From Saccharofermentanales bacterium (GTDB taxonomy: Bacteria > Bacillota > Clostridia > Saccharofermentanales > DTU023), in NCBI GenBank assembly GCA_050951925.1, contig JBMNJZ010000001.1:464284-528283 (forward strand): a stretch of 64,000 nt of DNA, written 5' to 3'. The translations under genes and the position numbers were made by a program. Under the pieces are notes generated by a model. That model did not search any database. It saw only the letters and a list, made by a program, of their open reading frames with translations, and was not told the DNA's origin. This document shows, piece after piece, positions 15,613-38,067 of the stretch (position 1 is the stretch's first letter; every line of letters begins with the position of its first letter).

Positions 15613-16187
15613 GTCGCATTCTCCTTTTTATTCTGCGTGGCGGGCTTTGCCTCGCTCTCCTGCTGCTGCTCCTGTTCCCTGGCAGCTGTTACGGCATCCG
15701 GCCCGCCATCCAGGCGCAGAACACAGAAGCCACCTTCAGCAGACATATCCACAAAGGCTTCTCCCTGCGTAAGATCGAAAACTACATACTCCTGCGGGCT
15801 TACATTTGCCTGCTTTTTTTCTCCGGTAGAGTCAGCAGATGATCCGCTAGAGTGCCGAGCTTGAAGGATGATGCTTGTCTGTGTGTTCTCTTCCAGCCTA
15901 ACGCAGTTCGTTTCGCCCAGAGACAACGTGACGGTGGAGGCGTTCAGTGTTTCTATCCTATCGCCGTCCCTGATATTGACATCGTTCTTAAGCGAGTAGG
16001 ATATGCCTGCGCGCTCAATACTGACGCTACCTGATTTGCCGCTGGAGATAAATGTCAGCTGCTCGTTCTCCGGCTTATCGAACCAGCCCTGCAAACTGCC
16101 TATATTGAGTACGACTGCAATAATTATGGCAACGATCGCCACTACCATTATGAGATTGAGTAGCTTTTTCTTTTTTAAGGAGTTCAT
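15606..16187 (-). CDS. membrane-anchored protein of unknown function (first gene after riboswitch)
   Basis: MNSLKKKKLLNLIMVVAIVAIIIAVVLNIG is an N-terminal TM. It is followed by a small beta-rich domain and a Glu/Gln-rich tail. I recognise no family signature with confidence. Confidence 0.55.
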   Translation of the reverse strand: MNSLKKKKLLNLIMVVAIVAIIIAVVLNIGSLQGWFDKPENEQLTFISSGKSGSVSIERAGISYSLKNDVNIRDGDRIETLNASTVTLSLGETNCVRLEENTQTSIILQARHSSGSSADSTGEKKQANVSPQEYVVFDLTQGEAFVDMSAEGGFCVLRLDGGPDAVTAAREQEQQQESEAKPATQNKKENATC

Positions 16188-16243: not shown

Positions 16244-16284
16244 ATATGTCTGTATATCTATTTGCTCCCAATTAAAGGGTACGC

Positions 16285-16505
16285 AAACACCTCTTGTAGG
16301 TCTTCTGACTTACGCTTTCTAAAGAAATAATTTCCTTAAGTGACCATGCTCTGCCTTCTCAAGATCCTCTTGCACTTTCAGATCCCAATGACTGATTTTC
16401 ATCAACGAGCACGGCACAGGCGCTTACAGCGGCGGATACCGTCCGGGACTTGCACCCGGTTCCCTTGTCCATCTCCGAAGTCTCGTCCGCTTCGGAGCCA
16501 CAAAA
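16285..16505 (-). promoter_or_regulatory. cobalamin (B12) riboswitch aptamer
   Basis: The minus strand reads ...CUCCGAAGCGGACGAGACUUCGGAGAUGGACAAGGGAACCGGGUGCAAGUCCCGGACGGUAUCCGCCGCUGUAAGCG...AUCAGUCAUUGGGAUCUGAAAGUGCAAGAGGAUCUUGAGAAGGCAGAG...GCGUAAGUCAGAAGACCUACAAGAGG. This matches recalled conserved blocks of the cobalamin riboswitch: GGGAA..GGUG.AA.UCC....CCGC.GCUGUAA; GCCACUGG-like ..GGGAAGGC-like; and the B12 box AGUCAG.AGACCUGC-like. Confidence 0.85.
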
Positions 16506-16553
16506 GACGAATATTTACTTGTCAATTAGCACACGGACATTTGTCTAAATATC

Positions 16554-19526: not shown

Positions 19527-19800
19527 CGCCCTACTCCCTTCTATATTCAATAAAATAAAGAAATACAAGTTTTCTTGATTTTATCATAGGGCAGATGGGA
19601 AATAAAGAACAACAAATGGCTCTTAGTTTTCAATGAGCGGTAACGATATTTAATTATTCTGCAACTGAAGCGTTTTGTCGCCGTTTTACGGGTATAGTTA
19701 TGAGAAGAGGCTTTCAGGCTTTCCTTTGGTGCCTTTGCAGTACAATGGGATTATGCGGTAAAGCTTGGTTGCTGTTGGCCTTTTACGGGAGGGATGGCTT

Positions 19801-21345
19801 ATGAGATCGGAACAACTCCATGATGCGATCGGCCGGGTGGACGATAAGCTCGTAGCGGCGACAGAACGGTTGATCGATAGAAAACCGGGGCGGATGCCCG
19901 TCCGGCTCAGAGTTGTGGCGGCCATGATCGCTGTCTGTCTGGTCGGCGGCGGCGTTTTCCTGTGGAGCAAAGCCGGGCGGACCGATGCGGTTACGGTGCT
20001 CGCCGAGCCGGTCTATCCCGAGCGGGCTAGAAGGCCCTTGTATCCCTGGGTTGAAGGATCCGAACAAGCTCACTCGGACGAGGAATCCCCCGATGTTGCG
20101 GAACCCGGACAAGTTAACCCGGATGAGGGATCAGCCGATTCGGACGAAGAGAAGTGGGAGCAATATGAGAAACAATACGATATCTGGCTGGAGGACCATT
20201 CCCGGCGGATAAAATCAGTGCCGCCCGTAGACGATGAGCTGATGGCCTTCACCGAACGGATGAATCTGCAAATACTCGCCGCCGATGACGGCAGAAACCA
20301 TTTGTATTCGCCGGCAAATCTCTATCTGGCTCTGGCCATGGTGGCCGAATCCGCCGCCGGTGCATCCCGTGAGGAAATCCTGGCGGCTCTGGATGTAAAA
20401 TCGATGGAGGAACTGCGCGCCAAGGCGGCCAATCTCTGGAATTCGCAGTATGTAGATGACGGCTCTGCCAAGAGTGTGCTCGGCAGTTCGATCTGGATTG
20501 ATGATGAAGTCAAGGTAAAAAAAGATGCGATGGCAGTATTGGCTGAGATCTACAGGACATTTTCTTTTCAGGGCGATCTGCAAAAGCCGGAATTGATAAC
20601 AAAGCTCAGATCCTGGCTGAATGAGATGACCGGCGGCCTGCTGCAAGACAGTGTCAATGAATTTGCATTTTCTGAACTCGACAAGCTGGTTTTAACGACA
20701 ACTATTTTCCTGAAAGCAACCTGGGGTGAGAAGTTTAATAAGCAAATGACTGCCAAAGGCGAGTTCCATGCGCCGGCCGGAGATATTGAGGTCGACTTTA
20801 TGTCCGAAACTGCAGACATACCATATTATTGGGGAGGATGTTTTAGTGCGATCGGCAAAAGTCTGATTGATGTGGGTCATGTCTGGTTTATTCTTCCTGA
20901 CGAAGGCGTAAAGGTTAGCTCACTGCTCTCTGACCCGCAGATCAAATCCCTGCTTCGTACGAACTATCTGCAACCGTACCCTCAACAAAAAACTGTGACG
21001 GTTAATCTGAAAATACCTAAATTCGATCTGGCGAGTGATAATAATATGCCGCTCCGGGAGGCCATGCAAAAGCTGGGTGTGAAAAAGGTGTTTTCTCCTG
21101 AGGAAGCGGATCTTTCAACGATTACCGACTATAAGCCTATTTTTGTTGAAGATATTTTCCATTCGGCGCGGCTGACGATTGACGAAGACGGCGTCACAGG
21201 CGCGGCTTATACAATTATTCCTGATCCTATGGCATTGCCACCGCCCGGCGATAAAGTGGACATGGTCTTTGATCGCCCGTTCCTGGTAGTAGTCCAGGGC
21301 GCCGGCAATGTGCCGCTCTTCGTCGGCATCGTCAACCAGCCCTGA
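19801..21345 (+). CDS. membrane-anchored serpin (anti-sigma-like N-terminus + TM + serpin domain)
   Basis: ATG at 19801 follows GGGAGGG. The N-terminus MRSEQLHDAIGRVDDKLVAATERL..RLRVVAAMIAVCLVGGGVFLW has the (AIGxIDDxxV) head plus TM that is common downstream of ECF sigma genes in Clostridia. Serpin blocks are present: NHLYSPANLYLALAMVAESAAGASREEILAAL, ..TIDEDGVTGAAYT.. (hinge/RCL) and FDRPFLVVVQ. Confidence 0.75.
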   Translation: MRSEQLHDAIGRVDDKLVAATERLIDRKPGRMPVRLRVVAAMIAVCLVGGGVFLWSKAGRTDAVTVLAEPVYPERARRPLYPWVEGSEQAHSDEESPDVAEPGQVNPDEGSADSDEEKWEQYEKQYDIWLEDHSRRIKSVPPVDDELMAFTERMNLQILAADDGRNHLYSPANLYLALAMVAESAAGASREEILAALDVKSMEELRAKAANLWNSQYVDDGSAKSVLGSSIWIDDEVKVKKDAMAVLAEIYRTFSFQGDLQKPELITKLRSWLNEMTGGLLQDSVNEFAFSELDKLVLTTTIFLKATWGEKFNKQMTAKGEFHAPAGDIEVDFMSETADIPYYWGGCFSAIGKSLIDVGHVWFILPDEGVKVSSLLSDPQIKSLLRTNYLQPYPQQKTVTVNLKIPKFDLASDNNMPLREAMQKLGVKKVFSPEEADLSTITDYKPIFVEDIFHSARLTIDEDGVTGAAYTIIPDPMALPPPGDKVDMVFDRPFLVVVQGAGNVPLFVGIVNQP

Positions 21346-26317: not shown

Positions 26318-26501
26318 TTGAATATCAGTCAGGGATTGTTGTGAGTGTGGACCGTAGGCGGGTTACGGGCAGAAGCTGCGCAAGGGTCAGAACTAACCGG
26401 AAGCAGGTATAGTGTTGATAATCTGAACGCAGCCCGCGATGTCCCGACATTAGCCGACGACGATGCCCTGTATTGGAGCGAAGAGGAGTTATTATCAGTC
26501 A

Positions 26502-28256
26502 ATGAGGAAGAGTACTGTAGGCCGCTTTATTTCTTATTACCGGCCATATAAATTTACACTGTTTCTGGACCTGCTCAGCGCAGCTGTTATCGGTCTGGCC
26601 GGGGTTATTTTCCCTTTTATCCTGCGCCACCTGACCGGCCATGTTTTTCTCTTGCCTGATAGCGCGGAAATGATGCGCCAGCTCTGGTATTACTGCGGCG
26701 CGCTTCTGATTCTCTATATTGTCCAGTCTAGCGCCCAGTATTATATGGCGACTTACGGCCATATTATGGGAGCGAGGATGGAGACGGATATGCGCGATGA
26801 CCTGTTTACACATCTGGAGAAACTCTCTTTCTCCTTCTTCGACCGCACGAACACCGGTCAGATGATGTCGCGCATTATCTCAGATCTGGCTGATGTGACC
26901 GAGCTGGCCCATCACGGTCCGGAGAATCTCTTCATTGCCACGGTCAAAATTGTCGGCGCTTTCCTGGTTCTGTTTTTTATCCATATCCCGACCACTCTGG
27001 TCTTACTGGCGGCGACGATCGCCATGTTTGTTTTCACTATGATCCAAAGGCGGCGGATGCAACGCACTTTCATGGAGAATCGGCGCCGGATCGCCGATGT
27101 CAATGCCATAGTTCAGGACAGTCTGGCCGGTATCAGGACAGTCCAATCTTTCTCCAATGAAGATATAGAGGCGGAAAAATTCGGCGAAGGCAATCAGCGT
27201 TTTCTTGACTCCAAGATCGATAATTATCTGGTTATGGGGCAGTTTGTGTCTGTCAATGGCTTCATGCAGGGAATGATGTATCTGTCCGTGATCCTGACCG
27301 GCGGCTACTTCGTCACTACAGGCGATATCCTGGCAGTTGATGTCATTCTCTATGTCCTGTATATCAGTATGTTCCTGGATCCGATCAAGATGCTGATCAG
27401 CTTCACCGAACAATTTCAGAAAGGCATGACCGGTTTTACCAGGATGCTGGAAATCCTCGATACCGAGCCGGAAGTCAAAGACCGCCCCGGCGCGATCGAA
27501 GTGGGCGCATTGTCCGGGCGGATTGACTTCGAAGATGTGTCCTTTCATTACGAAGAGAATGAGCCTGTGCTTAAAAATATCAATGCCTCAATCTACAGCG
27601 GCTCTACAGTAGCCTTGGTCGGCCCGTCCGGTGCCGGTAAATCGACATTTGTTTCCATGATTCCCCGTTTCTATGATGTGGTCTCCGGCTCGGTGAAGAT
27701 CGATGGTATTGATGTGCGCGACCTGACCCTGAAATCCCTGCGCGCCAATATTGGCGTAGTCCAGCAGGATGTCTATATCTTCAATTGCAGTGTGCGCGAC
27801 AATATCGCCTACGGTCTCCCCGGCGCCGGCGACGAAGAAATCATCGCCGCCGCCAGGCAAGCCAATATTCATGACTTTATCATGACCTTGCCCCAGGGTT
27901 ACGATACCATGCTGGGCGAGCGCGGCATCAGATTCTCCGGCGGCCAGAAACAGAGGATCTCAATTGCCCGCGTCTTCCTTAAGAATCCATCCATCCTGAT
28001 TCTGGACGAAGCTACCTCTTCACTCGACAACGAGAGCGAGCTCTTCATCCAGTCTGCGCTGGACGAGCTGTCCCGCAACCGCACTACCCTGGTCATAGCT
28101 CACCGCCTCTCCACGATTAAGAACGCCGATCATATTCTGGTTCTGACCGAGGACGGAATCGCCGAACAGGGCAATCACGAAGATCTGCTGGCCAGGGGCG
28201 GTCTCTACTCTTATCTGTACAATCTCCAATTCCAGGACAAAGCCGGGGATAGTTAA
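26502..28256 (+). CDS. ABC exporter, fused permease/ATPase (MsbA/type IV exporter fold)
   Basis: There is a six-TM N-terminal half. The NBD has GPSGAGKST, FSGGQKQRISIARV and ILILDEATSSLD. The likely ATG is at 26502 (MRKSTVGRFISYYRPYK). Confidence 0.8.
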   Translation: MRKSTVGRFISYYRPYKFTLFLDLLSAAVIGLAGVIFPFILRHLTGHVFLLPDSAEMMRQLWYYCGALLILYIVQSSAQYYMATYGHIMGARMETDMRDDLFTHLEKLSFSFFDRTNTGQMMSRIISDLADVTELAHHGPENLFIATVKIVGAFLVLFFIHIPTTLVLLAATIAMFVFTMIQRRRMQRTFMENRRRIADVNAIVQDSLAGIRTVQSFSNEDIEAEKFGEGNQRFLDSKIDNYLVMGQFVSVNGFMQGMMYLSVILTGGYFVTTGDILAVDVILYVLYISMFLDPIKMLISFTEQFQKGMTGFTRMLEILDTEPEVKDRPGAIEVGALSGRIDFEDVSFHYEENEPVLKNINASIYSGSTVALVGPSGAGKSTFVSMIPRFYDVVSGSVKIDGIDVRDLTLKSLRANIGVVQQDVYIFNCSVRDNIAYGLPGAGDEEIIAAARQANIHDFIMTLPQGYDTMLGERGIRFSGGQKQRISIARVFLKNPSILILDEATSSLDNESELFIQSALDELSRNRTTLVIAHRLSTIKNADHILVLTEDGIAEQGNHEDLLARGGLYSYLYNLQFQDKAGDS

Positions 28257-28967: not shown

Positions 28968-29203
28968 ATCACCACCGGTTTTCCATCCTCAGCGCCGTAA
29001 TAGTACTAACATACGCTGCAGTCACGAGCCCAGCTTAAATGTCGCGCGCAATAAATTTTCAACTGCCATCTGTCAATTATCTTGACTGCTATCTCTTACC
29101 CGACAAAACCCAAGAAATATGTCATTTTAAATAATATCGTTGTGATATAATCGGGCTGCAGCTTAGTAATGAAATTACACTGCAAAATGAGAGAATTGGC
29201 TAT

Positions 29204-29341
29204 ATGCCACGAGGGCAAACTGCTCGACGGCGTAATCACTTTGAATATGCCGATGACGGTCTACACTTTAGAAAAGAATTAATTTCTCGGCGTAATGATT
29301 TCCTGGATTATGTAGATCCTCCGGCAGCTATCGAGATATAG
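29204..29341 (+). CDS. hypothetical 45-codon upstream ORF in the glycyl-radical-enzyme leader (may instead be RNA structure)
   Basis: Own translation gives MPRGQTARRRNHFEYADDGLHFRKELISRRNDFLDYVDPPAAIEI*. It has a weak Shine-Dalgarno, and the stop TAG overlaps the GRE ribosome-binding site (TAGGAGGAAAGACCATG). An internal repeat RRNxFxxY.D mirrors a nucleotide repeat. Confidence 0.2.
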   Translation: MPRGQTARRRNHFEYADDGLHFRKELISRRNDFLDYVDPPAAIEI

Positions 29342-29352
29342 GAGGAAAGACC

Positions 29353-31725
29353 ATGGCTGATTATCTGAAGCGTATCGCCAGACTGAAAGAACGTCTGTTA
29401 ACAATAAAACCGGAGATGGATCTGGAAAATGCCAGGATCCTGACCGAGGGTTTTATCGAGTACGCCAATATGCCGCTGATTCTGAAGAAAGCTTATGCTT
29501 TCCGCAAACAATGTCAGGAAAAGACCATCTTTATCGCGGAGGACGAGCTTATCGTCGGCAATTCCGGATCTAAAGTGCGTGGCGGCATTCTCTGTGCCGA
29601 CTGCTGCTGGTCGGTTCTTGATGACGAGCTGGAAACGATCAGCGACCGTCGCTATGACCCTTTCCATCTTCGCGCCGAAGACAAAGAATTATTCCTTGAT
29701 GTAGTCAAACCTTACTGGCGCGGCAAATCTAATTTTGAGCAATGGCGCCGTCAGATCCCGGAGGATCTGCGCCTGCTTCGCGATAATGGCGTCGTATTCA
29801 TTGACCGTAAGGGTGTCCGCGGTTTCGGCGAAACGACCGCCGGCTATGAATGGTTGCTGAATGCCGGTCTTAAAGGCATTAGAACGACGATCACGGAACG
29901 CAAATCCAGACTGAATCTGGCCAGACCGGGCGATTTGGAAAAAGATAATTTCCTGGAAGCATTGCTGCTGGTCTGCGAGGGTATTGCCGCTATGGCTCAG
30001 CGCTACTCTGCGCTGGCAGCTGATATGGCTTCCCGGGAGAAAGATATCGTGCGCAAAGCAGAGCTGCTCATGATCGCGGATATCTGCAGCCGAGTGCCGG
30101 AGAACCCGGCGACAACTTTCCACGAAGCGCTGCAGTCTTTCTATTTTTATCATACCTCGATCTTTATGGAGCAAAATGCCGCTTCCTACAACCCCGGCCG
30201 CATGGACCAGTACCTCCTGCCTTTCTACCGCGCGGATCGCGAAGCGGGCAGGATTGATCAGGATCAGGCTCAGGAGTTGCTGGACTGCCTCTGGATTAAA
30301 TTCAGCGAACCTTGTCTGTTCCAGGATGCGGTAACCGCCGAATTCGCCGCCGGCTACCCCATGTTCCAGAATGTCTGCGTCGGCGGCGTGGATGAAACCG
30401 GCCGCGATGCCGTCAATGAGCTGTCATATATGATCTTGCAGGCCTCGATGGATGTCCGGCTCTATCAGCCCTCACTCTCTGTCCGCTACAATATGGCGAA
30501 AAATCCCAACCAATTCCTGCGCAAAGTAGTGGAGCTGATCCGGCTCGGCACCGGTTTTCCCGCCTTCCACAATGATGAAGTCGGCATCCGTATGCTGCTG
30601 AACAAAGGCGTTCCCCTGCGCGAAGCCTGGGACTGGAATCCCTGCGGCTGTGTCGAGACCAATCTGGAGGGCAGGATGCGCCAGTATACCGCCCTGGCCG
30701 ATATAAATCTCGGCAGTCTTGTCGAATTGGCGTTAAATGACGGAGTCAACCGCAAGAGCGGCGAGCGGATCTCTGTCAGTACAGGCGATCCCGCCGCTTT
30801 CGAGTCCTTTGAGGATTTTACGAAGGCGCTGAAAGATCATATTGATCATACGATCCATGCCACGGTAGTCGGCAGCCACCTCCTGGACGAGATCTGCCTG
30901 GAGCGGCCGGTGCCCGCACTGTCGCTGACTTTTAAAGAATGCATCGAAAATGGCACCGACTATTCGGCCGGCGGCGCCAAGTACAATGTCGGCAACGGCA
31001 TTATTCTGATTGGCGTTGCTGATCTGGTCAACAGCCTGGCGGCTGTACGCCAGCTGGTCTATGAAGATCGCAGCGTCACGATGGAAGAACTTCTGGCAGC
31101 TCTGGCCGCAAACTTTGAGGGTTATGAGCATGTACGGGAGCTATGCCTGGCGGCGCCGAAATACGGCAATGACGATAAACGGGTTGACAACCTTGCCGCT
31201 GAAATCTTCACTTATATCGCCGATGAAATCGAACAGTACGAGAGCAAATTCGGCCGCATGACCCCGGGTATTCTGCCGGTCTCGGGCAATACTCCGTTCG
31301 GGCTTGAAGTCGGTGCCCTGCCCTCAGGCAGAAAAGCCTGGAAGCCACTGGCCGACGGTGTCAGCCCCAGCGGCGGTACTGATCTGGGCGGACCGACCGC
31401 AGTCCTGAAGTCTGTTTCCCATCTGCCGCACGACAGATTTACCCAGGGCACTCTGCTCAATATGAAAGTCGAAGATGATCTCTTGAATTCAGAAAACGGC
31501 ATTCGCCAGATGATGGCCTTGCTCAAGAGCATGTGCAGTCTGGGTATTTTTCATGTCCAGTTCAATGTTATCGATCAGGCGAAATTGCTGGCTGCCCAGA
31601 AGAACCCGGAACAGTACAAAGGTCTGCTGATCCGGGTAGCAGGCTATACGGCATATTTCGTCGAATTGGGCAAAGATGTGCAAGATGAAATAATAGCCCG
31701 CACCGTTCAAACTCGAATTCAATAA
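29353..31725 (+). CDS. glycyl radical enzyme, PFL-fold, Cys-x-Glu (eliminase/dehydratase-type) active-site loop; substrate unknown
   Basis: The C-terminal glycyl radical motif is LIRVAGYTAYFVEL. The thiyl loop is WNPCGCVETN: a single Cys followed by Glu, not the Cys-Cys of pyruvate formate-lyase. The protein is 790 aa. Confidence 0.85.
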   Translation: MADYLKRIARLKERLLTIKPEMDLENARILTEGFIEYANMPLILKKAYAFRKQCQEKTIFIAEDELIVGNSGSKVRGGILCADCCWSVLDDELETISDRRYDPFHLRAEDKELFLDVVKPYWRGKSNFEQWRRQIPEDLRLLRDNGVVFIDRKGVRGFGETTAGYEWLLNAGLKGIRTTITERKSRLNLARPGDLEKDNFLEALLLVCEGIAAMAQRYSALAADMASREKDIVRKAELLMIADICSRVPENPATTFHEALQSFYFYHTSIFMEQNAASYNPGRMDQYLLPFYRADREAGRIDQDQAQELLDCLWIKFSEPCLFQDAVTAEFAAGYPMFQNVCVGGVDETGRDAVNELSYMILQASMDVRLYQPSLSVRYNMAKNPNQFLRKVVELIRLGTGFPAFHNDEVGIRMLLNKGVPLREAWDWNPCGCVETNLEGRMRQYTALADINLGSLVELALNDGVNRKSGERISVSTGDPAAFESFEDFTKALKDHIDHTIHATVVGSHLLDEICLERPVPALSLTFKECIENGTDYSAGGAKYNVGNGIILIGVADLVNSLAAVRQLVYEDRSVTMEELLAALAANFEGYEHVRELCLAAPKYGNDDKRVDNLAAEIFTYIADEIEQYESKFGRMTPGILPVSGNTPFGLEVGALPSGRKAWKPLADGVSPSGGTDLGGPTAVLKSVSHLPHDRFTQGTLLNMKVEDDLLNSENGIRQMMALLKSMCSLGIFHVQFNVIDQAKLLAAQKNPEQYKGLLIRVAGYTAYFVELGKDVQDEIIARTVQTRIQ

Positions 31726-31786
31726 AGCATGAAAAGAGCGGGCCGGGTTTGAAGCAGATAATAGCGCAGCAAAGGACAATCAGCGG

Positions 31787-32554
31787 GTGAGACAGACGAG
31801 CAGCGGAACAATTCTGCGTCTTGAGCGCTCTTCGATTCATGACGGAGAGGGGCTGCGCACTGTGATTTTTCTCAAAGGATGTCCTCTGCGCTGTGCCTGG
31901 TGCTCTACTCCCGAGGGCTGGCTGCCCGGCATTACGGAAACGGAGACTGCCAGCTATGGCTATATCATGACCGCCGACGAATTGCTGGCCGAGATAGTAA
32001 AGGACGAGATTTTTTTCTTTCATTCCGATGGCGGCATTACTTTTTCCGGCGGTGAACCGCTATGCCAGGCTGAATTTGTAACGGATGTCGCAGCCGGAGC
32101 GCGCAAATTGGGCATATCTACAGCTATGGAATCCAGTCTATGCTATCCCTGGCAGGCGGTAGAAAAAGTTCTGCCGCATCTGGATGCCCTCTATGCCGAT
32201 CTCAAACATATCGACCCGGAGCAGCATAAGTTCTATACCGGACAGGATAATCGGCGAATCCTGGAGAATATCCGCAGGGTTTCGGACAGCGATCTGCCAC
32301 TGCAACTGATCATCCGCATGGTCTTGGTTCCGGGAATCAATGATGACGAAGCCACTCTGCGCCAAACGGGGGAATTCCTGCAATCACTGCATAATCTGAC
32401 CAGGGTAGAGCTACTGCCTTATCACAGACTGGGGGTAGGCACTTATGCCAAATTAGGTTTGCGGTATCGTCTGCCGGAGACCAAAGCGCCGTCACAGCCG
32501 GAACTGCAAAGAGGCAAAGCTATATTGAGCCAATACATAAACAACATCAAATAA
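31787..32554 (+). CDS. glycyl-radical enzyme activating enzyme (radical SAM), short PflA-like form
   Basis: The N-terminus has SSIHDGEGLRTVIFLKGCPLRCAWCSTPE (CX3CX2C). No Cys-rich ferredoxin-like insert follows. The protein is 255 aa and starts with GTG. Confidence 0.8.
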   Translation: MRQTSSGTILRLERSSIHDGEGLRTVIFLKGCPLRCAWCSTPEGWLPGITETETASYGYIMTADELLAEIVKDEIFFFHSDGGITFSGGEPLCQAEFVTDVAAGARKLGISTAMESSLCYPWQAVEKVLPHLDALYADLKHIDPEQHKFYTGQDNRRILENIRRVSDSDLPLQLIIRMVLVPGINDDEATLRQTGEFLQSLHNLTRVELLPYHRLGVGTYAKLGLRYRLPETKAPSQPELQRGKAILSQYINNIK

Positions 32555-32682: not shown

Positions 32683-33876
32683 TTAGACGCGGTCGGGATA
32701 TACCTTCAGAGCCTTATCCAGAATCTCAACTGCGCGTTTCAGATCATCCGTTTTCAATACATAGGCAACACGCACTTCATCGACGCCCATACCCGGTGTC
32801 TGGTAGAAGTTTTCGACCGGAGCGACCATAACGGTTTCATTATTGTCGTTGAAATCAGTCAGCATCCATTTGGCGAAGTCTTCCGCATTCTTGACAGGCA
32901 GTTTGGCAATAGCGTAGAAAGCGCCCATCGGCTTCTTGCACAGGACGCCGTCAATAGCGGCCAGACCATCACACAGGACATCACGACGGTTCTGGTAGCG
33001 CTCGCGGATCGGATCAAAGTAGGATGGATCCAGCTGGTAGAGAGCGGTAGAGCCGATCATTTCCAGCGTCGGGGCACACAGTCTGCTCTGGCCGAGCTTC
33101 AGGATCTGCTCCGGCAGCTCCTTATTTTTAGTGGCCAGAGAACCGATACGCGCGCCGCAGGCGGAGAAGCGTTTGGATACGCTGTCAACAATGATCACAC
33201 GGTCAAGAATGTCGGTCATCTCACCAAAGCTGGTAGCTTTCAGTCCCTCATAAGTGAACTCGCGATACACTTCGTCAGCGATGATAAAGAGATCGTGCTC
33301 CTTGGCGATTTTGGCCAGCATTTCCACTTCCTCGCGGGTGTAGACCACGCCGGTGGGGTTGCCCGGATTGGACAGAGCAATGGCACGGGTCTTGTCAGTC
33401 AACTTGGACACGATTTCCGCCTCGGAGGGCAGCGCGAAACCATTCTCGGCATAAGTAGTCAGAGGCTTGATATTGACAGCATAGGGAGCAGCGAAGCTGC
33501 GATAGTTGGTATAGAAGGGCTCAGGAACCAGGATATCTTCATCAACATCCGCAACAGCGATAAAAGCCCACATCAGAGCCTCACTGCCGCCGTTGGTGAT
33601 AATGATGTCTTCGGGTTCATAGGGAAGACCGATTCTCTTATAGTAGTCGGATGTAGCCTTGACCAACTGAGGATCTCCCTTTGAGTTGGCATAAGCCAGG
33701 ACTTTGATCTCGGCATTGCGGATGGCATCCATAAACTCAGGCGGTGTCTCGATATCGGGTTGTCCGACATTAAGTCCATAGACTTTGATGCCGCGTTTTC
33801 TGGCAGCGTCGGCAAAAGGTACCAGACGTCTGATGGGTGATGCCTGCATGGCCATCATTCTGTTTGAAATTTTCAT
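32683..33876 (-). CDS. class I/II PLP-dependent aminotransferase (aspartate aminotransferase-like)
   Basis: MKISNRMMAMQASPIRRL.., NPGNPTG and the PLP-Lys motif SVSKRFSACGARIG are present. Confidence 0.85.
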   Translation of the reverse strand: MKISNRMMAMQASPIRRLVPFADAARKRGIKVYGLNVGQPDIETPPEFMDAIRNAEIKVLAYANSKGDPQLVKATSDYYKRIGLPYEPEDIIITNGGSEALMWAFIAVADVDEDILVPEPFYTNYRSFAAPYAVNIKPLTTYAENGFALPSEAEIVSKLTDKTRAIALSNPGNPTGVVYTREEVEMLAKIAKEHDLFIIADEVYREFTYEGLKATSFGEMTDILDRVIIVDSVSKRFSACGARIGSLATKNKELPEQILKLGQSRLCAPTLEMIGSTALYQLDPSYFDPIRERYQNRRDVLCDGLAAIDGVLCKKPMGAFYAIAKLPVKNAEDFAKWMLTDFNDNNETVMVAPVENFYQTPGMGVDEVRVAYVLKTDDLKRAVEILDKALKVYPDRV

Positions 33877-34534: not shown

Positions 34535-35591
34535 ATAGTTCTCCCGTTCATTATTGATTTTTACCATTTTTTTAGTATATCACTTTGTAATTAAGCGTTC
34601 AATGAGTTTGGGTTTAGAATCGTAACTAAATTTAGTATCGATAGTAAAAGTCGGCGCAATCAACATTTCATCCATTATTAGTCACAAGACATAACTGCAA
34701 GCAGACATTGACTAATGTTATATTTCTTTTGTCGGATCGGTATAAGCAACAGCTTTTATGCTATATGCATAGGCGGTAAACAAAGATAAGACAACGATAT
34801 TTTAATATCTCTTCATATTGTATACAATGCCGGAATAGTTCGAGAAATACCGGATTATTAATATAATCAAGGGGGGCCTTATTCGGGATCGTATTATCGC
34901 GCCAAGATTGCATTTTGATGCGGGGAAAACCGTGATACATCGCGTAAAAATGCCCGCGAAACAAAACTAAAACCCTGCAGCTAAAATCTCTAAAAACTTG
35001 ACAGCATACTGCCTCTGGGCTATGCTGAATCTAAGTTCCCATAGATATAAATTATAGGGAACTTGCCCATCAGTTGCCGGGTAACCGAGCGAATATGAAC
35101 CTTGACAGACTGCAAGCTGAATGGCGCTTGGCCATATCGTGATCGTAAGCAATAAGTGATCTAAAATTACGCAGCATTCTGCCGGCAATAAAAGATTTGC
35201 TTGGCTTACCACCTCTGTCGTCTCAATCTGCCCTGTTCACGGGAATGACGCAGCAGGCAAAAGATCTGATCTGGGCAAAAGAAGGGAGGAAGTACTGTTT
35301 TGGAAGTACACCTCGACGAAACGGGCAGCTAAAGCTCCGATATTATCTACTTAGTGACAGCATGAATTGGCATCTATATCGGATACTGCCCGTTTCGCAT
35401 GTCATGAGATAAATTACCGCCTATAATCTGTTGCAGATTTGTACCATTTGTATCACTATGCTAGTCCGTATAATTACTGCAGTAATTTTCCCCGATTTTA
35501 GTTAAAATAGACAGGGCTAAGATTTAAATTGTCATTTTGCACAATTAGCTCTCTATTATACTGGCAGGATATAGTGAAAGGTAGTGATGAT

Positions 35592-36725
35592 ATGATTACA
35601 TATCACGGATTGAGGAAGTATTGCTCTAGGTTGATGGCCTTGATCTTGGTTATGGTATTAATGCTGACGGTGGTTGCCTGTAGCAACGGGAAATCTCAGG
35701 GGGATGCTACTGTAAACGATACGGGTACCGGATCTGAGACAGCGGATGAAGGAAGCGAGATTGCCGGGATAGCGCCTTCGACAAATACTGATGCGGAAAC
35801 TGTGACATCCGATGCTCCTGTTGATAAAGTGAAGCTCCGTGTTGGTGTGCTTAAAGGTCCTACCGGCATGGGAGTAGTTCAGATCATGGAACGCCGGGAG
35901 CAGGGTGATACTGAATTGGATTACGAGTTTACAATTGCCGGCGCTCCTGTGGATATGGCCGGTCTGATCACATCCGGCAACCTGGATATTGCGCTGCTGC
36001 CGACTAATATGGCGGCCGCTTTGTACAATAAGACGGAAGGCAAGGTCAAGCTGATCCATATCAATACTCTGGGTGTTATGAGCATTGTCGGGTCAGACAG
36101 CGAGACCTTCGCGGATATTAAGGATCTCAGGGGCAAGACAATTATCGCGGCCGGACAAGGTGCCGCGCCTGAATTTGTGCTCAACTTTATCTTGGAACAA
36201 AATGGCCTGGATCCCAAAGCGGATGTGACGATTGATTTCAAGAGTGAGCATACAGAGGTAGCGTCTTTACTGCTTAGTAAGAAAAATGATCTCGTCCTGC
36301 TGGCTGAGCCATTTACTACTTCCGTACTGATGCAGGATAATACAAATAAGATTGTCTTTGATTTGACTGGGGAATGGGAGAAGGTGGCTGAGAATAATGC
36401 CAAATTGGTGATGGGTGCCGCCGTTGTCAGGACTGAATTCCTGGCTGAGTATCCTGAGGCCGTGGAGATTTTCCTGCGTGATTTTGATGCTTCGCAGCAG
36501 TTTGTCAATGCCGATCCGGAAGCGGCTGCACAGCTGATTGAGAAATTTGATATTTTCAAGGCCGCAGTGGCAGCGAAGGCTATTCCCCGAAGTTATATTG
36601 TTTCGCTGACCGGAGCGGAAATGAAAGGAGATGCCTCGGTATTTCTGAAAGTCCTGTTTGATAACAATCCTAAATCAATCGGGGGGAAACTTCCGGAGGA
36701 GGACTTCTATTATCTGGGTCCATGA
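35592..36725 (+). CDS. ABC transporter substrate-binding lipoprotein (NMT1/SsuA/TauA-like)
   Basis: The ATG at 35592 gives MITYHGLRKYCSRLMALILVMVLMLTVVAC (lipobox). ..KLRVGVLKGPTGMGVVQIM.. and ..IALLPTNMAAALYNK.. are typical of the NitT/TauT-type SBP family as recalled. Confidence 0.65.
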   Translation: MITYHGLRKYCSRLMALILVMVLMLTVVACSNGKSQGDATVNDTGTGSETADEGSEIAGIAPSTNTDAETVTSDAPVDKVKLRVGVLKGPTGMGVVQIMERREQGDTELDYEFTIAGAPVDMAGLITSGNLDIALLPTNMAAALYNKTEGKVKLIHINTLGVMSIVGSDSETFADIKDLRGKTIIAAGQGAAPEFVLNFILEQNGLDPKADVTIDFKSEHTEVASLLLSKKNDLVLLAEPFTTSVLMQDNTNKIVFDLTGEWEKVAENNAKLVMGAAVVRTEFLAEYPEAVEIFLRDFDASQQFVNADPEAAAQLIEKFDIFKAAVAAKAIPRSYIVSLTGAEMKGDASVFLKVLFDNNPKSIGGKLPEEDFYYLGP

Positions 36726-37477
36726 GGTTTAGACGCAGACAACAGAAAATATTTGCCGTTCTGTTCTGGCTGGCCGTGTGGGGGTTATTTGCCCTTCTGG
36801 TAGGTCAGGAATTGCTGGTGCCGCAGCCTTACTTGGTATTGGAGAGGCTGTGGCTTCTGGCTGGCAGGAGCAGTTTCTATTTGAATCTCCTCCATTCTCT
36901 TTACCGCATCTGCTTGGGTTTCTTGTTGGGAACGGTGCTGGGGGCTATCCTGGCTTATCTGACGACTGCCAATCCTTGGGCAGGCGCTATTATTGAGCCT
37001 TTGATGAGTGTAATCCGTTCAACTCCAATCGCTTCTATTATTATTTTGCTCTTGATCTGGCTTTCGCCTACCGGCGTTGTGATCAGTTGTGTGGTCCTGA
37101 TCGTGCTGCCGGTGATGTGGAGCAATTTTGTGGCGGGTATCAATTATCGCGATCCCCAGTTGGAAGAAGTGGCCGATCTGTTTGGCTTCAGCCGTTGGAA
37201 GCGGTGGCGCTATCTCAGGGTGCCGGCTATCCTGCCTTTCTTTTTCGCTGCTGTTCAAACGGGGCTGGGCTTCGCTTGGAAAGCCGGGGTAGCGGCGGAG
37301 GTGTTAAGCATACCGCGCCATGCCATTGGCACTCGACTTTATGATGCCAAGATTTATCTGGAAACGGCCGATCTGTTTGCCTGGACATTCGTTGTCATCC
37401 TTTTGAGTATTGCCTTAGAGAAGTCAATTCTGATGACCGTAAGAAGAGCGGGCAGATATTTGGACAGGGTAAAATAA
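36722..37477 (+). CDS. ABC transporter permease (NitT/TauT-type, BPD_transp_1)
   Basis: The protein is polytopic. It is translationally coupled to the flanking genes (4-nt and 1-nt overlaps). Confidence 0.75.
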   Translation: MRFRRRQQKIFAVLFWLAVWGLFALLVGQELLVPQPYLVLERLWLLAGRSSFYLNLLHSLYRICLGFLLGTVLGAILAYLTTANPWAGAIIEPLMSVIRSTPIASIIILLLIWLSPTGVVISCVVLIVLPVMWSNFVAGINYRDPQLEEVADLFGFSRWKRWRYLRVPAILPFFFAAVQTGLGFAWKAGVAAEVLSIPRHAIGTRLYDAKIYLETADLFAWTFVVILLSIALEKSILMTVRRAGRYLDRVK

Positions 37478-38067
37478 TGGGCATTATTATCCGCAATTTA
37501 TCCAAGGCTTACGGGGACAAGAAAGTGCTGTGCGCACTTAATGCCGAAATGCCGGATACCGGATATGTAGCCATCCTGGGTTCATCCGGTGTCGGGAAAA
37601 CAAGTCTGCTGCGACTGATCGCCGGTCTGGAAGAGCCGGATGAGGGCGAAATTATCTTTACTTATTCCGAAACGCCCAAGATCAGCATGGTCTTCCAGGA
37701 AGACAGGCTATTCCCTCATCTCAGCGCCAGAGAGAATGTGGCTCTGGTTGGAGATGATAGGGCAAATGACCTAAAGCAAGCGGATATTCTGCTGACACAA
37801 TTGGGCTTGGGCGATTGTATCTATCAAAGGGCGGCGGAACTGTCCGGCGGTATGAAGCGCCGGGTGGCTCTGGCTCGCTCACTGCTCTACGGCGGTCAGA
37901 TCTATCTGCTGGACGAATTGTTTACAGGCCTTGACGATCAGACTCTATGCCAGGTGACTAAAACTTTGGATCCTTTGTCCGAAGCGGCCCTGGTTATATT
38001 TGTTTCGCACGATACCCGGCTTCTGACTGACCGGGTTAAGCAAATCATACGGATAGAGCCGGCTTAA
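37477..38067 (+). CDS. ABC transporter ATP-binding protein (short, 196 aa)
   Basis: GSSGVGKTS, LSGGMKRRVALARSL and IYLLDELFTGLD are present. There is no C-terminal regulatory domain. Confidence 0.8.
   Translation: MGIIIRNLSKAYGDKKVLCALNAEMPDTGYVAILGSSGVGKTSLLRLIAGLEEPDEGEIIFTYSETPKISMVFQEDRLFPHLSARENVALVGDDRANDLKQADILLTQLGLGDCIYQRAAELSGGMKRRVALARSLLYGGQIYLLDELFTGLDDQTLCQVTKTLDPLSEAALVIFVSHDTRLLTDRVKQIIRIEPA

Follow-up and report, generated by a model that had tools for sequence, protein, structure and literature searches.

A pair of adjacent genes at positions 29353-32554 of a 64,000-nucleotide stretch of Saccharofermentanales bacterium contig JBMNJZ010000001.1 (the whole stretch is called the window) is best read as a self-contained glycyl radical enzyme (GRE) system of the N-methyl-4-hydroxyproline dehydratase clade, an activity that we predict by analogy with the characterised enzymes HpyG and HpzG. 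The pair has homology to this clade, the motifs of its class, a place in a separate subgroup that we name A-type, an activase reduced to the radical S-adenosylmethionine (SAM) core and the marks of purifying selection. Judging from the alignments and gene context, we see an even chance that the preferred substrate has shifted from that of HpyG, to another stereoisomer or to a close derivative. N-methyl-hydroxyproline dehydratases have been known since 2024; new here are the uncharacterised sister group and a naturally ferredoxin-less activase. The GRE gene has the following features.

28968-29352, plus strand: upstream intergenic region of 385 nt, including AGGAGG, without the GntR/FCD gene of close relatives
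29353-31725, plus strand: GRE open reading frame (ORF) of 790 aa, A-type subgroup of the HpyG/HpzG clade (ORF, Pfam, identity, model, ratio of nonsynonymous to synonymous substitution (dN/dS))
30346-30348, plus strand: Ala332, subgroup-defining; Ser in HpyG, HpzG and HypD (alignment)
30643-30657, plus strand: thiyl loop C431-G-C433-V-E435 (gapless alignment to 8ID1; invariant in the family)
30694-30696, plus strand: Leu448, subgroup-defining; Tyr450 in 97% of the HpyG clade (alignment)
31003-31008, plus strand: Ile551-Leu552, subgroup-defining; Asp553-Ala554 in the HpyG clade, Asn-Ile in HpzG (alignment, model strand)
31642-31644, plus strand: Gly764, glycyl radical site in RVAGY (aligns with CutC Gly821)

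The GRE ORF is preceded by a ribosome-binding site (AGGAGG, 29340-29345) and matched both the PFL-like domain PF02901 (E = 3.2e-198) and the Gly_radical domain PF01228 (E = 3.5e-29), the PFL-like barrel and C-terminal RVxG-bearing domain of the GRE superfamily. Direct inspection of the sequence recovered LIRVAGYTAYF (Gly764), WNPCGCVETN (Cys433, Glu435) and EQNAASYNPGRMDQYL, as well as EQNAASYNPGRMDQY. The original prediction, which described a 790-aa GRE with RVAGY and NPCGCVET and gave EQNAASYNPGRMDQYL around the PGRxDQY strand, was thus accurate to the letter. Its account of the thiyl loop as a single Cys plus Glu held for Cys433 and Glu435, but the loop contains two cysteines (C431-G-C433), non-adjacent unlike those of pyruvate formate-lyase (PFL). 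The thiyl-loop Cys-x-Glu motif is the mark of GRE 1,2-eliminases, in which the roles of its residues have been described (PMC13450708), and C433-V-E435 aligned with C435/E437 of HpyG and C489/E491 of CutC, in agreement with the class proposed earlier. By this alignment, Cys433 is the predicted catalytic thiyl site and Glu435 the putative CxE glutamate. The second cysteine, Cys431, two residues ahead of the catalytic one (Cys431-Gly-Cys433, 30643-30651), was invariant across the aligned window-group and HpyG-clade proteins, present in HpzG and missing in CutC.

The AlphaFold model of the GRE (pLDDT 85.9) superimposed on 8ID1 with a template-modelling (TM) score of 0.95. Its sole long low-confidence stretch, residues 644-674 (31282-31374; pLDDT below 50-57), lies just past the beta-8 strand bearing S644 and is highly conserved in sequence within the family. 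The gene had a dN/dS of 0.03 against the syntenic Saccharofermentanales metagenome-assembled genome (MAG) L001. Upstream of the GRE, an Rfam scan returned no riboswitch or leader RNA match, and promoter and terminator scans gave scores no better than shuffled sequence.

A sequence search of the PDB identified 8ID1 (1161 bits) and 8IOF (946 bits), both released in 2024, as the best solved relatives of the window GRE, followed by CutC (615-679 bits), glycerol dehydratase (545) and HypD (503). According to a review (PMC13450708), 8ID1 is HpyG and 8IOF is HpzG (FS41). The window GRE was 63.1% identical to HpyG over 783 residues with zero gaps, 51.8% identical to HpzG and 39% identical to CutC. It scored below the cut-offs of the NCBIfam models for CutC (TIGR04394: 720.6 bits, cut-off 1050) and HypD (NF043068: 624 bits, cut-off 1100), and the broad subfamily TIGR01774 was the only NCBIfam model that it passed, as is also the case for HpyG. 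Because of the gapless 63% identity to HpyG, the TM score of 0.95 and the 52% identity to HpzG, we place the window GRE by sequence in the known HpyG/HpzG functional clade and not in an unplaced new subfamily. The earlier claim of an uncharacterised subfamily with a new substrate therefore loses its first half to HpyG as a close characterised relative (63%), while a substrate other than that of HpyG is a live possibility for a protein that falls outside the HpyG clade.

Pocket positions were mapped indirectly, through an alignment of the window GRE to D. alaskensis CutC and the published HypD equivalences (PMC7077986). The mapping was checked against the second GRE found in 14 related loci, which is a HypD orthologue (1360 bits against the HypD equivalog cut-off of 1100). 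All 14 orthologues showed F152, R156, H160, D278, K326, S334, D339, F340, Y450 and T645 at the mapped columns, and because the full HypD signature appears there, we regard the mapping as valid. The window GRE carries R152, R156, E160, A276, A277, Q324, A332, M337, F338 and C433, followed by V434, E435, T446, A449, D450, P642, V643, S644, G645 and G764. It equals HpyG at 19/20 of these positions, including all five that tell HpyG from HpzG (R152, A277, F338, A449, D450); the sole exception is residue 332, which is Ala in the window GRE and Ser in HpyG, HpzG and HypD. This Ser334 holds the carboxylate of the substrate in HypD, where the change S334A abolishes activity (PMC7077986). The column of HypD Asp278 holds Ala277, so that the loss of this Asp, noted in the original prediction, is upheld by the mapping with the HypD orthologues; position 277 is Ala in A-type proteins and HpyG and Ser in HpzG. 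Glu160 is common to A-type proteins, HpyG and HpzG, in place of His160 of HypD. Differences from HypD suggest that positions 160 and 277 may form the N-methyl side of the pocket.

The A-type group comprises 125 protein clusters and 80 genome loci. Proteins from the 80 species-level loci share 68-98% identity with the window GRE, come from Bacillota, Desulfobacterota, Synergistota and others, and carry the window signature at every mapped position (80/80). A search with the HpyG sequence recovered a clade of its own, with 88 clusters that were 68-100% identical to HpyG and 57-66% identical to the window GRE. Comparison of the two groups revealed 15 columns fixed differently, among them, given as A-type/HpyG clade, 332 (Ala/Ser), 448 (Leu/Tyr), 469 (Ser/Tyr), 473 (Ile/Ala), 551 (Ile/Asp) and 552 (Leu/Ala). 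Residues 549-553 form a predicted barrel strand in the window model, and residue 332 comes after a short helix, a position also described for Ser334 of HypD. In bootstrapped neighbour-joining (NJ) trees (100 replicates), the HpyG clade was monophyletic in 100/100 with the window GRE outside it, and A-type proteins and the HpyG clade were jointly monophyletic in 100/100. The test set beforehand for the original prediction, tight clustering with a characterised GRE together with retention of all its binding residues, thus came close to going against it, falling short through the position outside the HpyG clade (100/100), the change of Ser334 to Ala332 and differences at four to five more residues specific to the subfamily.

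Residues 332 and 551 covaried across four groups: Ser at 332 was paired with Asp or Asn at 551, Ala at 332 with Ile at 551. A further GRE lineage, apparently uncharacterised and represented by loci L086 and L087, was 63% identical to HpzG and grouped with it in 100/100 bootstraps, apart from the window GRE, and carried Ala and Ile at the positions of HpzG Ser334 and Asn553; therefore, residues 332 and 551 change as a pair in either half of the superclade. Both loci (L086, 3666-6861; L087, 3666-6852) combine the GRE with an activase of only 283-286 aa, and a sigma-54 activator and an AP_endonuc_2 gene accompany them; BCCT and MttB genes were additionally present at L086, and a Na/Ala symporter in their place at L087.

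Gene context differed between the two groups as well. HpyG adjoins a ProC-type pyrroline-5-carboxylate (P5C) reductase, a helix-turn-helix (HTH)-cupin regulator and an activase of 313 aa that has ferredoxin motifs, and the proC and HTH-cupin pair was present in 4/5 HpyG-clade loci (HpyG and 3/4 others), some of which also had MttB, MFS or BCCT genes. Among the 80 A-type loci, by comparison, proC occurred in two, and MttB, HTH-cupin and HpyG-type MFS genes in none. Their recurring neighbours were a branched-chain-type ABC importer (22/80 loci), a Pro_racemase-family protein (18/80), an OCD/mu-crystallin protein (14/80), a true HypD with its own activase, as a separate enzyme (14/80), a GntR regulator (12/80), an AraC regulator (10/80) and a PRK06476-like P5C reductase (6/80). 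Taken as annotated, these partners point to metabolism of a proline or hydroxyproline derivative. In one Desulfosporosinus locus (L015, 9974-16713) and likewise in L022, L023 and L026, the A-type GRE shares a gene run with a bona fide HypD, from which two tandem activases separate it, and a branched-chain-type ABC importer stands ahead of the run; Pro_racemase-family and OCD genes lie near the run in L015, L022 and L026, and neither was seen in the L023 stretch. An apparent fusion of GRE and activase in one long ORF of L076 was dismissed as an ORF-calling artefact in a high-GC contig.

A shift of substrate appears somewhat likelier than plain orthology because residues 332, 448 and 551 change from polar to hydrophobic, the change covaries in four groups and the gene context is different. 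Several points weigh against such a shift. Just one mapped first-shell position differs from HpyG, and by sequence Ser to Ala is a small change. Substrate contact of residues 448, 551 and 552 is putative, their placement coming from sequence and a predicted strand. A-type proteins alone were recovered in 37/100 NJ bootstraps, and because this monophyly is weak, HpyG may have arisen from within an A-type grade, a topology compatible with retained and with changed function. The window offers neither a reductase nor an epimerase nor a dedicated transporter in favour of any specific substrate. Our literature search found no biochemical data on any A-type protein, and nothing usable on ferredoxin-less GRE activases or on GRE chemistry with hydroxyproline betaine; the primary HpyG paper (ACS Catal 2024, 14:4407; doi 10.1021/acscatal.4c00216), which was outside that search, may cover the group.

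The strongest alternative, to which we assign a real but minority share of our belief, is that the window GRE is a plain HpyG orthologue. The gapless identity, the agreement at 19/20 mapped positions (with all those that part HpyG from HpzG), the joint monophyly in 100/100 with A-type as a possible grade around HpyG, and the P5C-reductase-like gene beside the GRE in some A-type loci (L014), as at HpyG loci, would all be expected of an orthologue. However, six positions are fixed oppositely between about 125 A-type clusters from many phyla and about 88 HpyG-clade clusters, which is the pattern of specificity-determining residues; the lost Ser is conserved in HpyG, HpzG and HypD and essential in HypD; and the difference in gene context is systematic.

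Different chemistry altogether, for example CutC- or HplG-like C-N cleavage of a 4-hydroxyproline derivative, tertiary or quaternary (hydroxyproline betaine, for instance), or action on a non-proline substrate, is in our judgement improbable. Beyond HpyG and HpzG, CutC is the nearest family (NCBIfam 720 bits against 624 for HypD; PDB 615-679), Glu160 occupies the column of CutC Asp216, the residue that binds trimethylammonium, and the changes Ser to Ala, Tyr to Leu and Asp to Ile, all polar to hydrophobic, would suit an N-H-free substrate. However, the CutC score of 720 is under the cut-off of 1050, CutC Tyr208, Thr334, Phe389 and Tyr506 are not kept, the catalytic side of the pocket is the same as in HpyG, no trimethylamine-, betaine- or aldehyde-handling or microcompartment genes were found near the window GRE, and the partner genes of relatives are tied to proline or hydroxyproline.

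A broader proposal, somewhat doubtful but worth stating, builds on the shifted-substrate reading: the HpyG/HpzG superclade would hold at least four specificity groups (HpyG, HpzG, A-type and L086/L087) marked by the 332/551 switch, the Ala/Ile groups would act on the two remaining N-methyl-4-hydroxyproline stereoisomers, the trans ones, or on a derivative without N-H, and the window protein would represent a new GRE activity.

The expected reaction is drawn by homology from HpyG, HpzG and HypD. The 255-aa activase, with a single [4Fe-4S] cluster and SAM, would take a hydrogen atom from Gly764, and the radical would then move from Gly764 to Cys433. The substrate would be an N-methylated 4-hydroxyproline-type compound, with Glu435 holding its 4-OH, and the resulting thiyl radical would take a hydrogen atom from its C5. 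Water would be lost from C4 and the hydrogen given back to C4, and the product, a cyclic N-methyl-pyrroline-5-carboxylate iminium ion, would be reduced by a reductase encoded elsewhere.

The second gene of the pair encodes the activase, with the following features.

31787-32554, plus strand: GRE-activating radical SAM enzyme of 255 aa, radical SAM core only (TIGR02494, model, dN/dS)
31880-31903, plus strand: CX3CX2C (C32, C36, C39), predicted radical SAM [4Fe-4S] site (invariant in the activase alignment)
31916-31960, plus strand: junction G44-G58, where about 50 residues with two CxxCxxCxxxC motifs are missing (alignment with long activases)

The activase starts at GTG 31787, 61 nt past the GRE and with AAGGA 10 nt upstream. 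It contains five cysteines in all and no CxxCxxCxxxC motif, in line with the original description of a 255-aa protein with CX3CX2C and no ferredoxin-like insertion. The SAM and cluster motifs were invariant in the activase alignment, and G88-G89-E90 is the GGE motif. Aligned with long activases, that of HpyG included, the window protein and 17 more showed a clean gap of about 50 columns right after CSTPE, which removes both CxxCxxCxxxC motifs and leaves conserved flanks. The protein therefore has the CX3CX2C and GGE core of long-type activases and lacks their eight-Cys ferredoxin-like insert. Consistently, the long-type model TIGR02494 (PFLE_PFLC) gave 237.6 bits against a cut-off of 174.35 in two matched stretches, with profile positions of about 45-98 skipped, and the PflA equivalog TIGR02493 gave 187.6 bits, below its cut-off of 231.75. 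The caveat that a mis-called start might hide cluster motifs proved unfounded: no N-terminal extension is possible because of an in-frame TGA (31730-31732, 55 nt upstream) with no start codon before GTG 31787, and in relatives the insert is internal, after CX3CX2C. Recruitment of a PflA from a PFL system was also rejected, since the long-type model scores higher and the activase nests among long ones.

An NJ tree on shared columns split the short activases into three or more groups, each lying within the long forms, in agreement with the GRE tree: the window clade, a gut Bacillota clade including Enterococcus avium, and two Desulfobacterota/Myxococcota MAGs. By this tree, the insert of about 50 residues was deleted at least three times in the family. 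In Enterococcus sp. AZ135 (L084, 10465-11292), an HpyG-clade GRE is paired with a 275-aa activase that retains a partial insert remnant and two of its cysteines, which makes it another independent shortening. Ferredoxin motifs were absent from 89/120 nearest database homologues of the activase, and the three whose contigs were examined all lie beside GREs of the HpyG/HpzG superclade. The ferredoxin-like domain is present in the vast majority of GRE activases, with only those of PFL and ribonucleotide reductase (PFL-AE and RNR-AE) lacking it, and a 2026 review describes its function as unknown (PMC13450708). Because nearly all GRE activases keep the domain according to this review, its repeated loss inside one eliminase family is a real though modest variant.

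The activase had a dN/dS of 0.10 against L001 at an unsaturated dS of 0.63, and its model was confident (pLDDT 96.5); it is under purifying selection and, from sequence and model, looks functional. That the short activase is a decaying remnant, with another activase elsewhere in the genome serving the GRE or the whole system inactive, is very unlikely: in the HPAD system, the ferredoxin-like domain is reported to be needed for the glycyl radical to last (cited in PMC13450708), and the GntR regulator of relatives is missing here, but the low dN/dS, the invariant radical SAM motifs, the confident PFL-AE-like fold, the prevalence of short forms (89/120) and their retention across the window clade and origin in at least two other lineages, always directly downstream of the GRE, all speak against decay.

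The window is syntenic with L001 at 85-93% DNA identity. In L001 and in L003-L006, a GntR/FCD gene lies directly upstream of the GRE and is not found in the window; at this site (window 29108-29325, L001 8796-9973), the window has about 0.2 kb in place of about 1.2 kb in L001. Short-activase lineages generally have bare regulator-GRE-activase modules, as in the window. The aminotransferase noted originally as convergent downstream was recovered at 32683-33876 on the minus strand (PRK07568, 606 bits). Within 10 kb on either side, the genes are a serpin, a permease, an AAA_14 ATPase, malic enzyme, an ABC exporter, an A24 peptidase, the aminotransferase, an XRE regulator, an ABC importer and a GHMP kinase, all unrelated. 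No shell, reductase or epimerase genes were found between 19.7 and 39.5 kb of the window, and a tblastn search of the window with the Pro_racemase, OCD, P5C reductase, GntR, AraC, substrate-binding protein and SDH-like gene of relatives gave no matches. The original statement that shell genes, transporters and pathway partners are lacking nearby thus stands for the first and the last, but not for transporters, as ABC genes occur at 26463-28256 and 35529-38067. The former is of exporter type and does not travel with the GRE in relatives. The latter is a NitT/TauT-like ABC importer of three plus-strand genes (an NMT1/phosphonate-binding substrate-binding protein, a permease and an ATPase), which is absent from the syntenic L001, strain-specific and unlinked to the GRE in relatives.

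Two further elements of the window were recorded. A cobalamin riboswitch (RF00174; 69.4 bits, E = 4.8e-15) lies at 16278-16520 on the minus strand, upstream of a minus-strand gene run ending near 16187, and falls where GC content is low (0.41-0.45 at 16-20 kb). The serpin is a 526-aa ORF at 19765-21345 on the plus strand; its serpin domain is complete (PF00079, E = 6e-57), an uncommon feature among bacteria.

For annotation, an HpyG-like N-methyl-hydroxyproline-type dehydratase replaces the labels 'formate C-acetyltransferase' and 'choline TMA-lyase' carried by homologues. The A-type proteins form a large sister group of HpyG in at least 80 species-level genomes, and because they have fixed pocket residues of their own, they are sensible candidates for substrate discovery in anaerobic proline-derivative metabolism. 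The close GRE-activase pairs with and without the ferredoxin-like domain, separated by at least three independent deletions, make the role of this domain directly testable. On a somewhat doubtful further reading, the ferredoxin-less activases, having arisen several times, would mean that the auxiliary clusters are dispensable, and nature would provide matched pairs for studying cluster function.

Among characterised systems, HpyG has the same length, fold, PCGCVE thiyl loop and RVAGY motif as the window GRE; its Ser334, Tyr450, Tyr471 and Asp553-Ala554 are replaced by Ala, Leu, Ser and Ile-Leu in the window GRE, and its proC, HTH-cupin regulator and 313-aa ferredoxin-type activase have no counterparts in the window. 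HpzG shares the clade, fold, thiyl loop and Glu160 with the window GRE but differs at 5/20 mapped positions (K153, S279, T340, G451 and E452 in HpzG). HypD belongs to the same eliminase class with the CxE motif and shares Arg156, and the expected chemistry (C5 hydrogen abstraction, 4-OH loss, cyclic imine product) would be alike; however, it is only about 32-35% identical, and its His160, Asp278, Lys326, Ser334, Asp339, Tyr450 and Thr645 are Glu, Ala, Gln, Ala, Met, Asp and Ser in the window GRE, which together with the sub-threshold model score places this enzyme outside HypD. CutC, the nearest characterised family after HpyG and HpzG, resembles the window GRE in the acidic residue at the Asp216 column, but only Phe395 and Thr502 of its choline-binding residues are kept, and its microcompartment and aldehyde-handling context is not found around the window GRE. 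On the activase side, PFL-AE (PflA, 3CB8) likewise consists of the radical SAM core with one cluster, and the window model fits it closely (TM 0.91/0.95, root-mean-square deviation 1.4 A); at 32% identity and a score below the PflA equivalog, however, the window activase is best described as a deletion derivative of the long three-cluster type.

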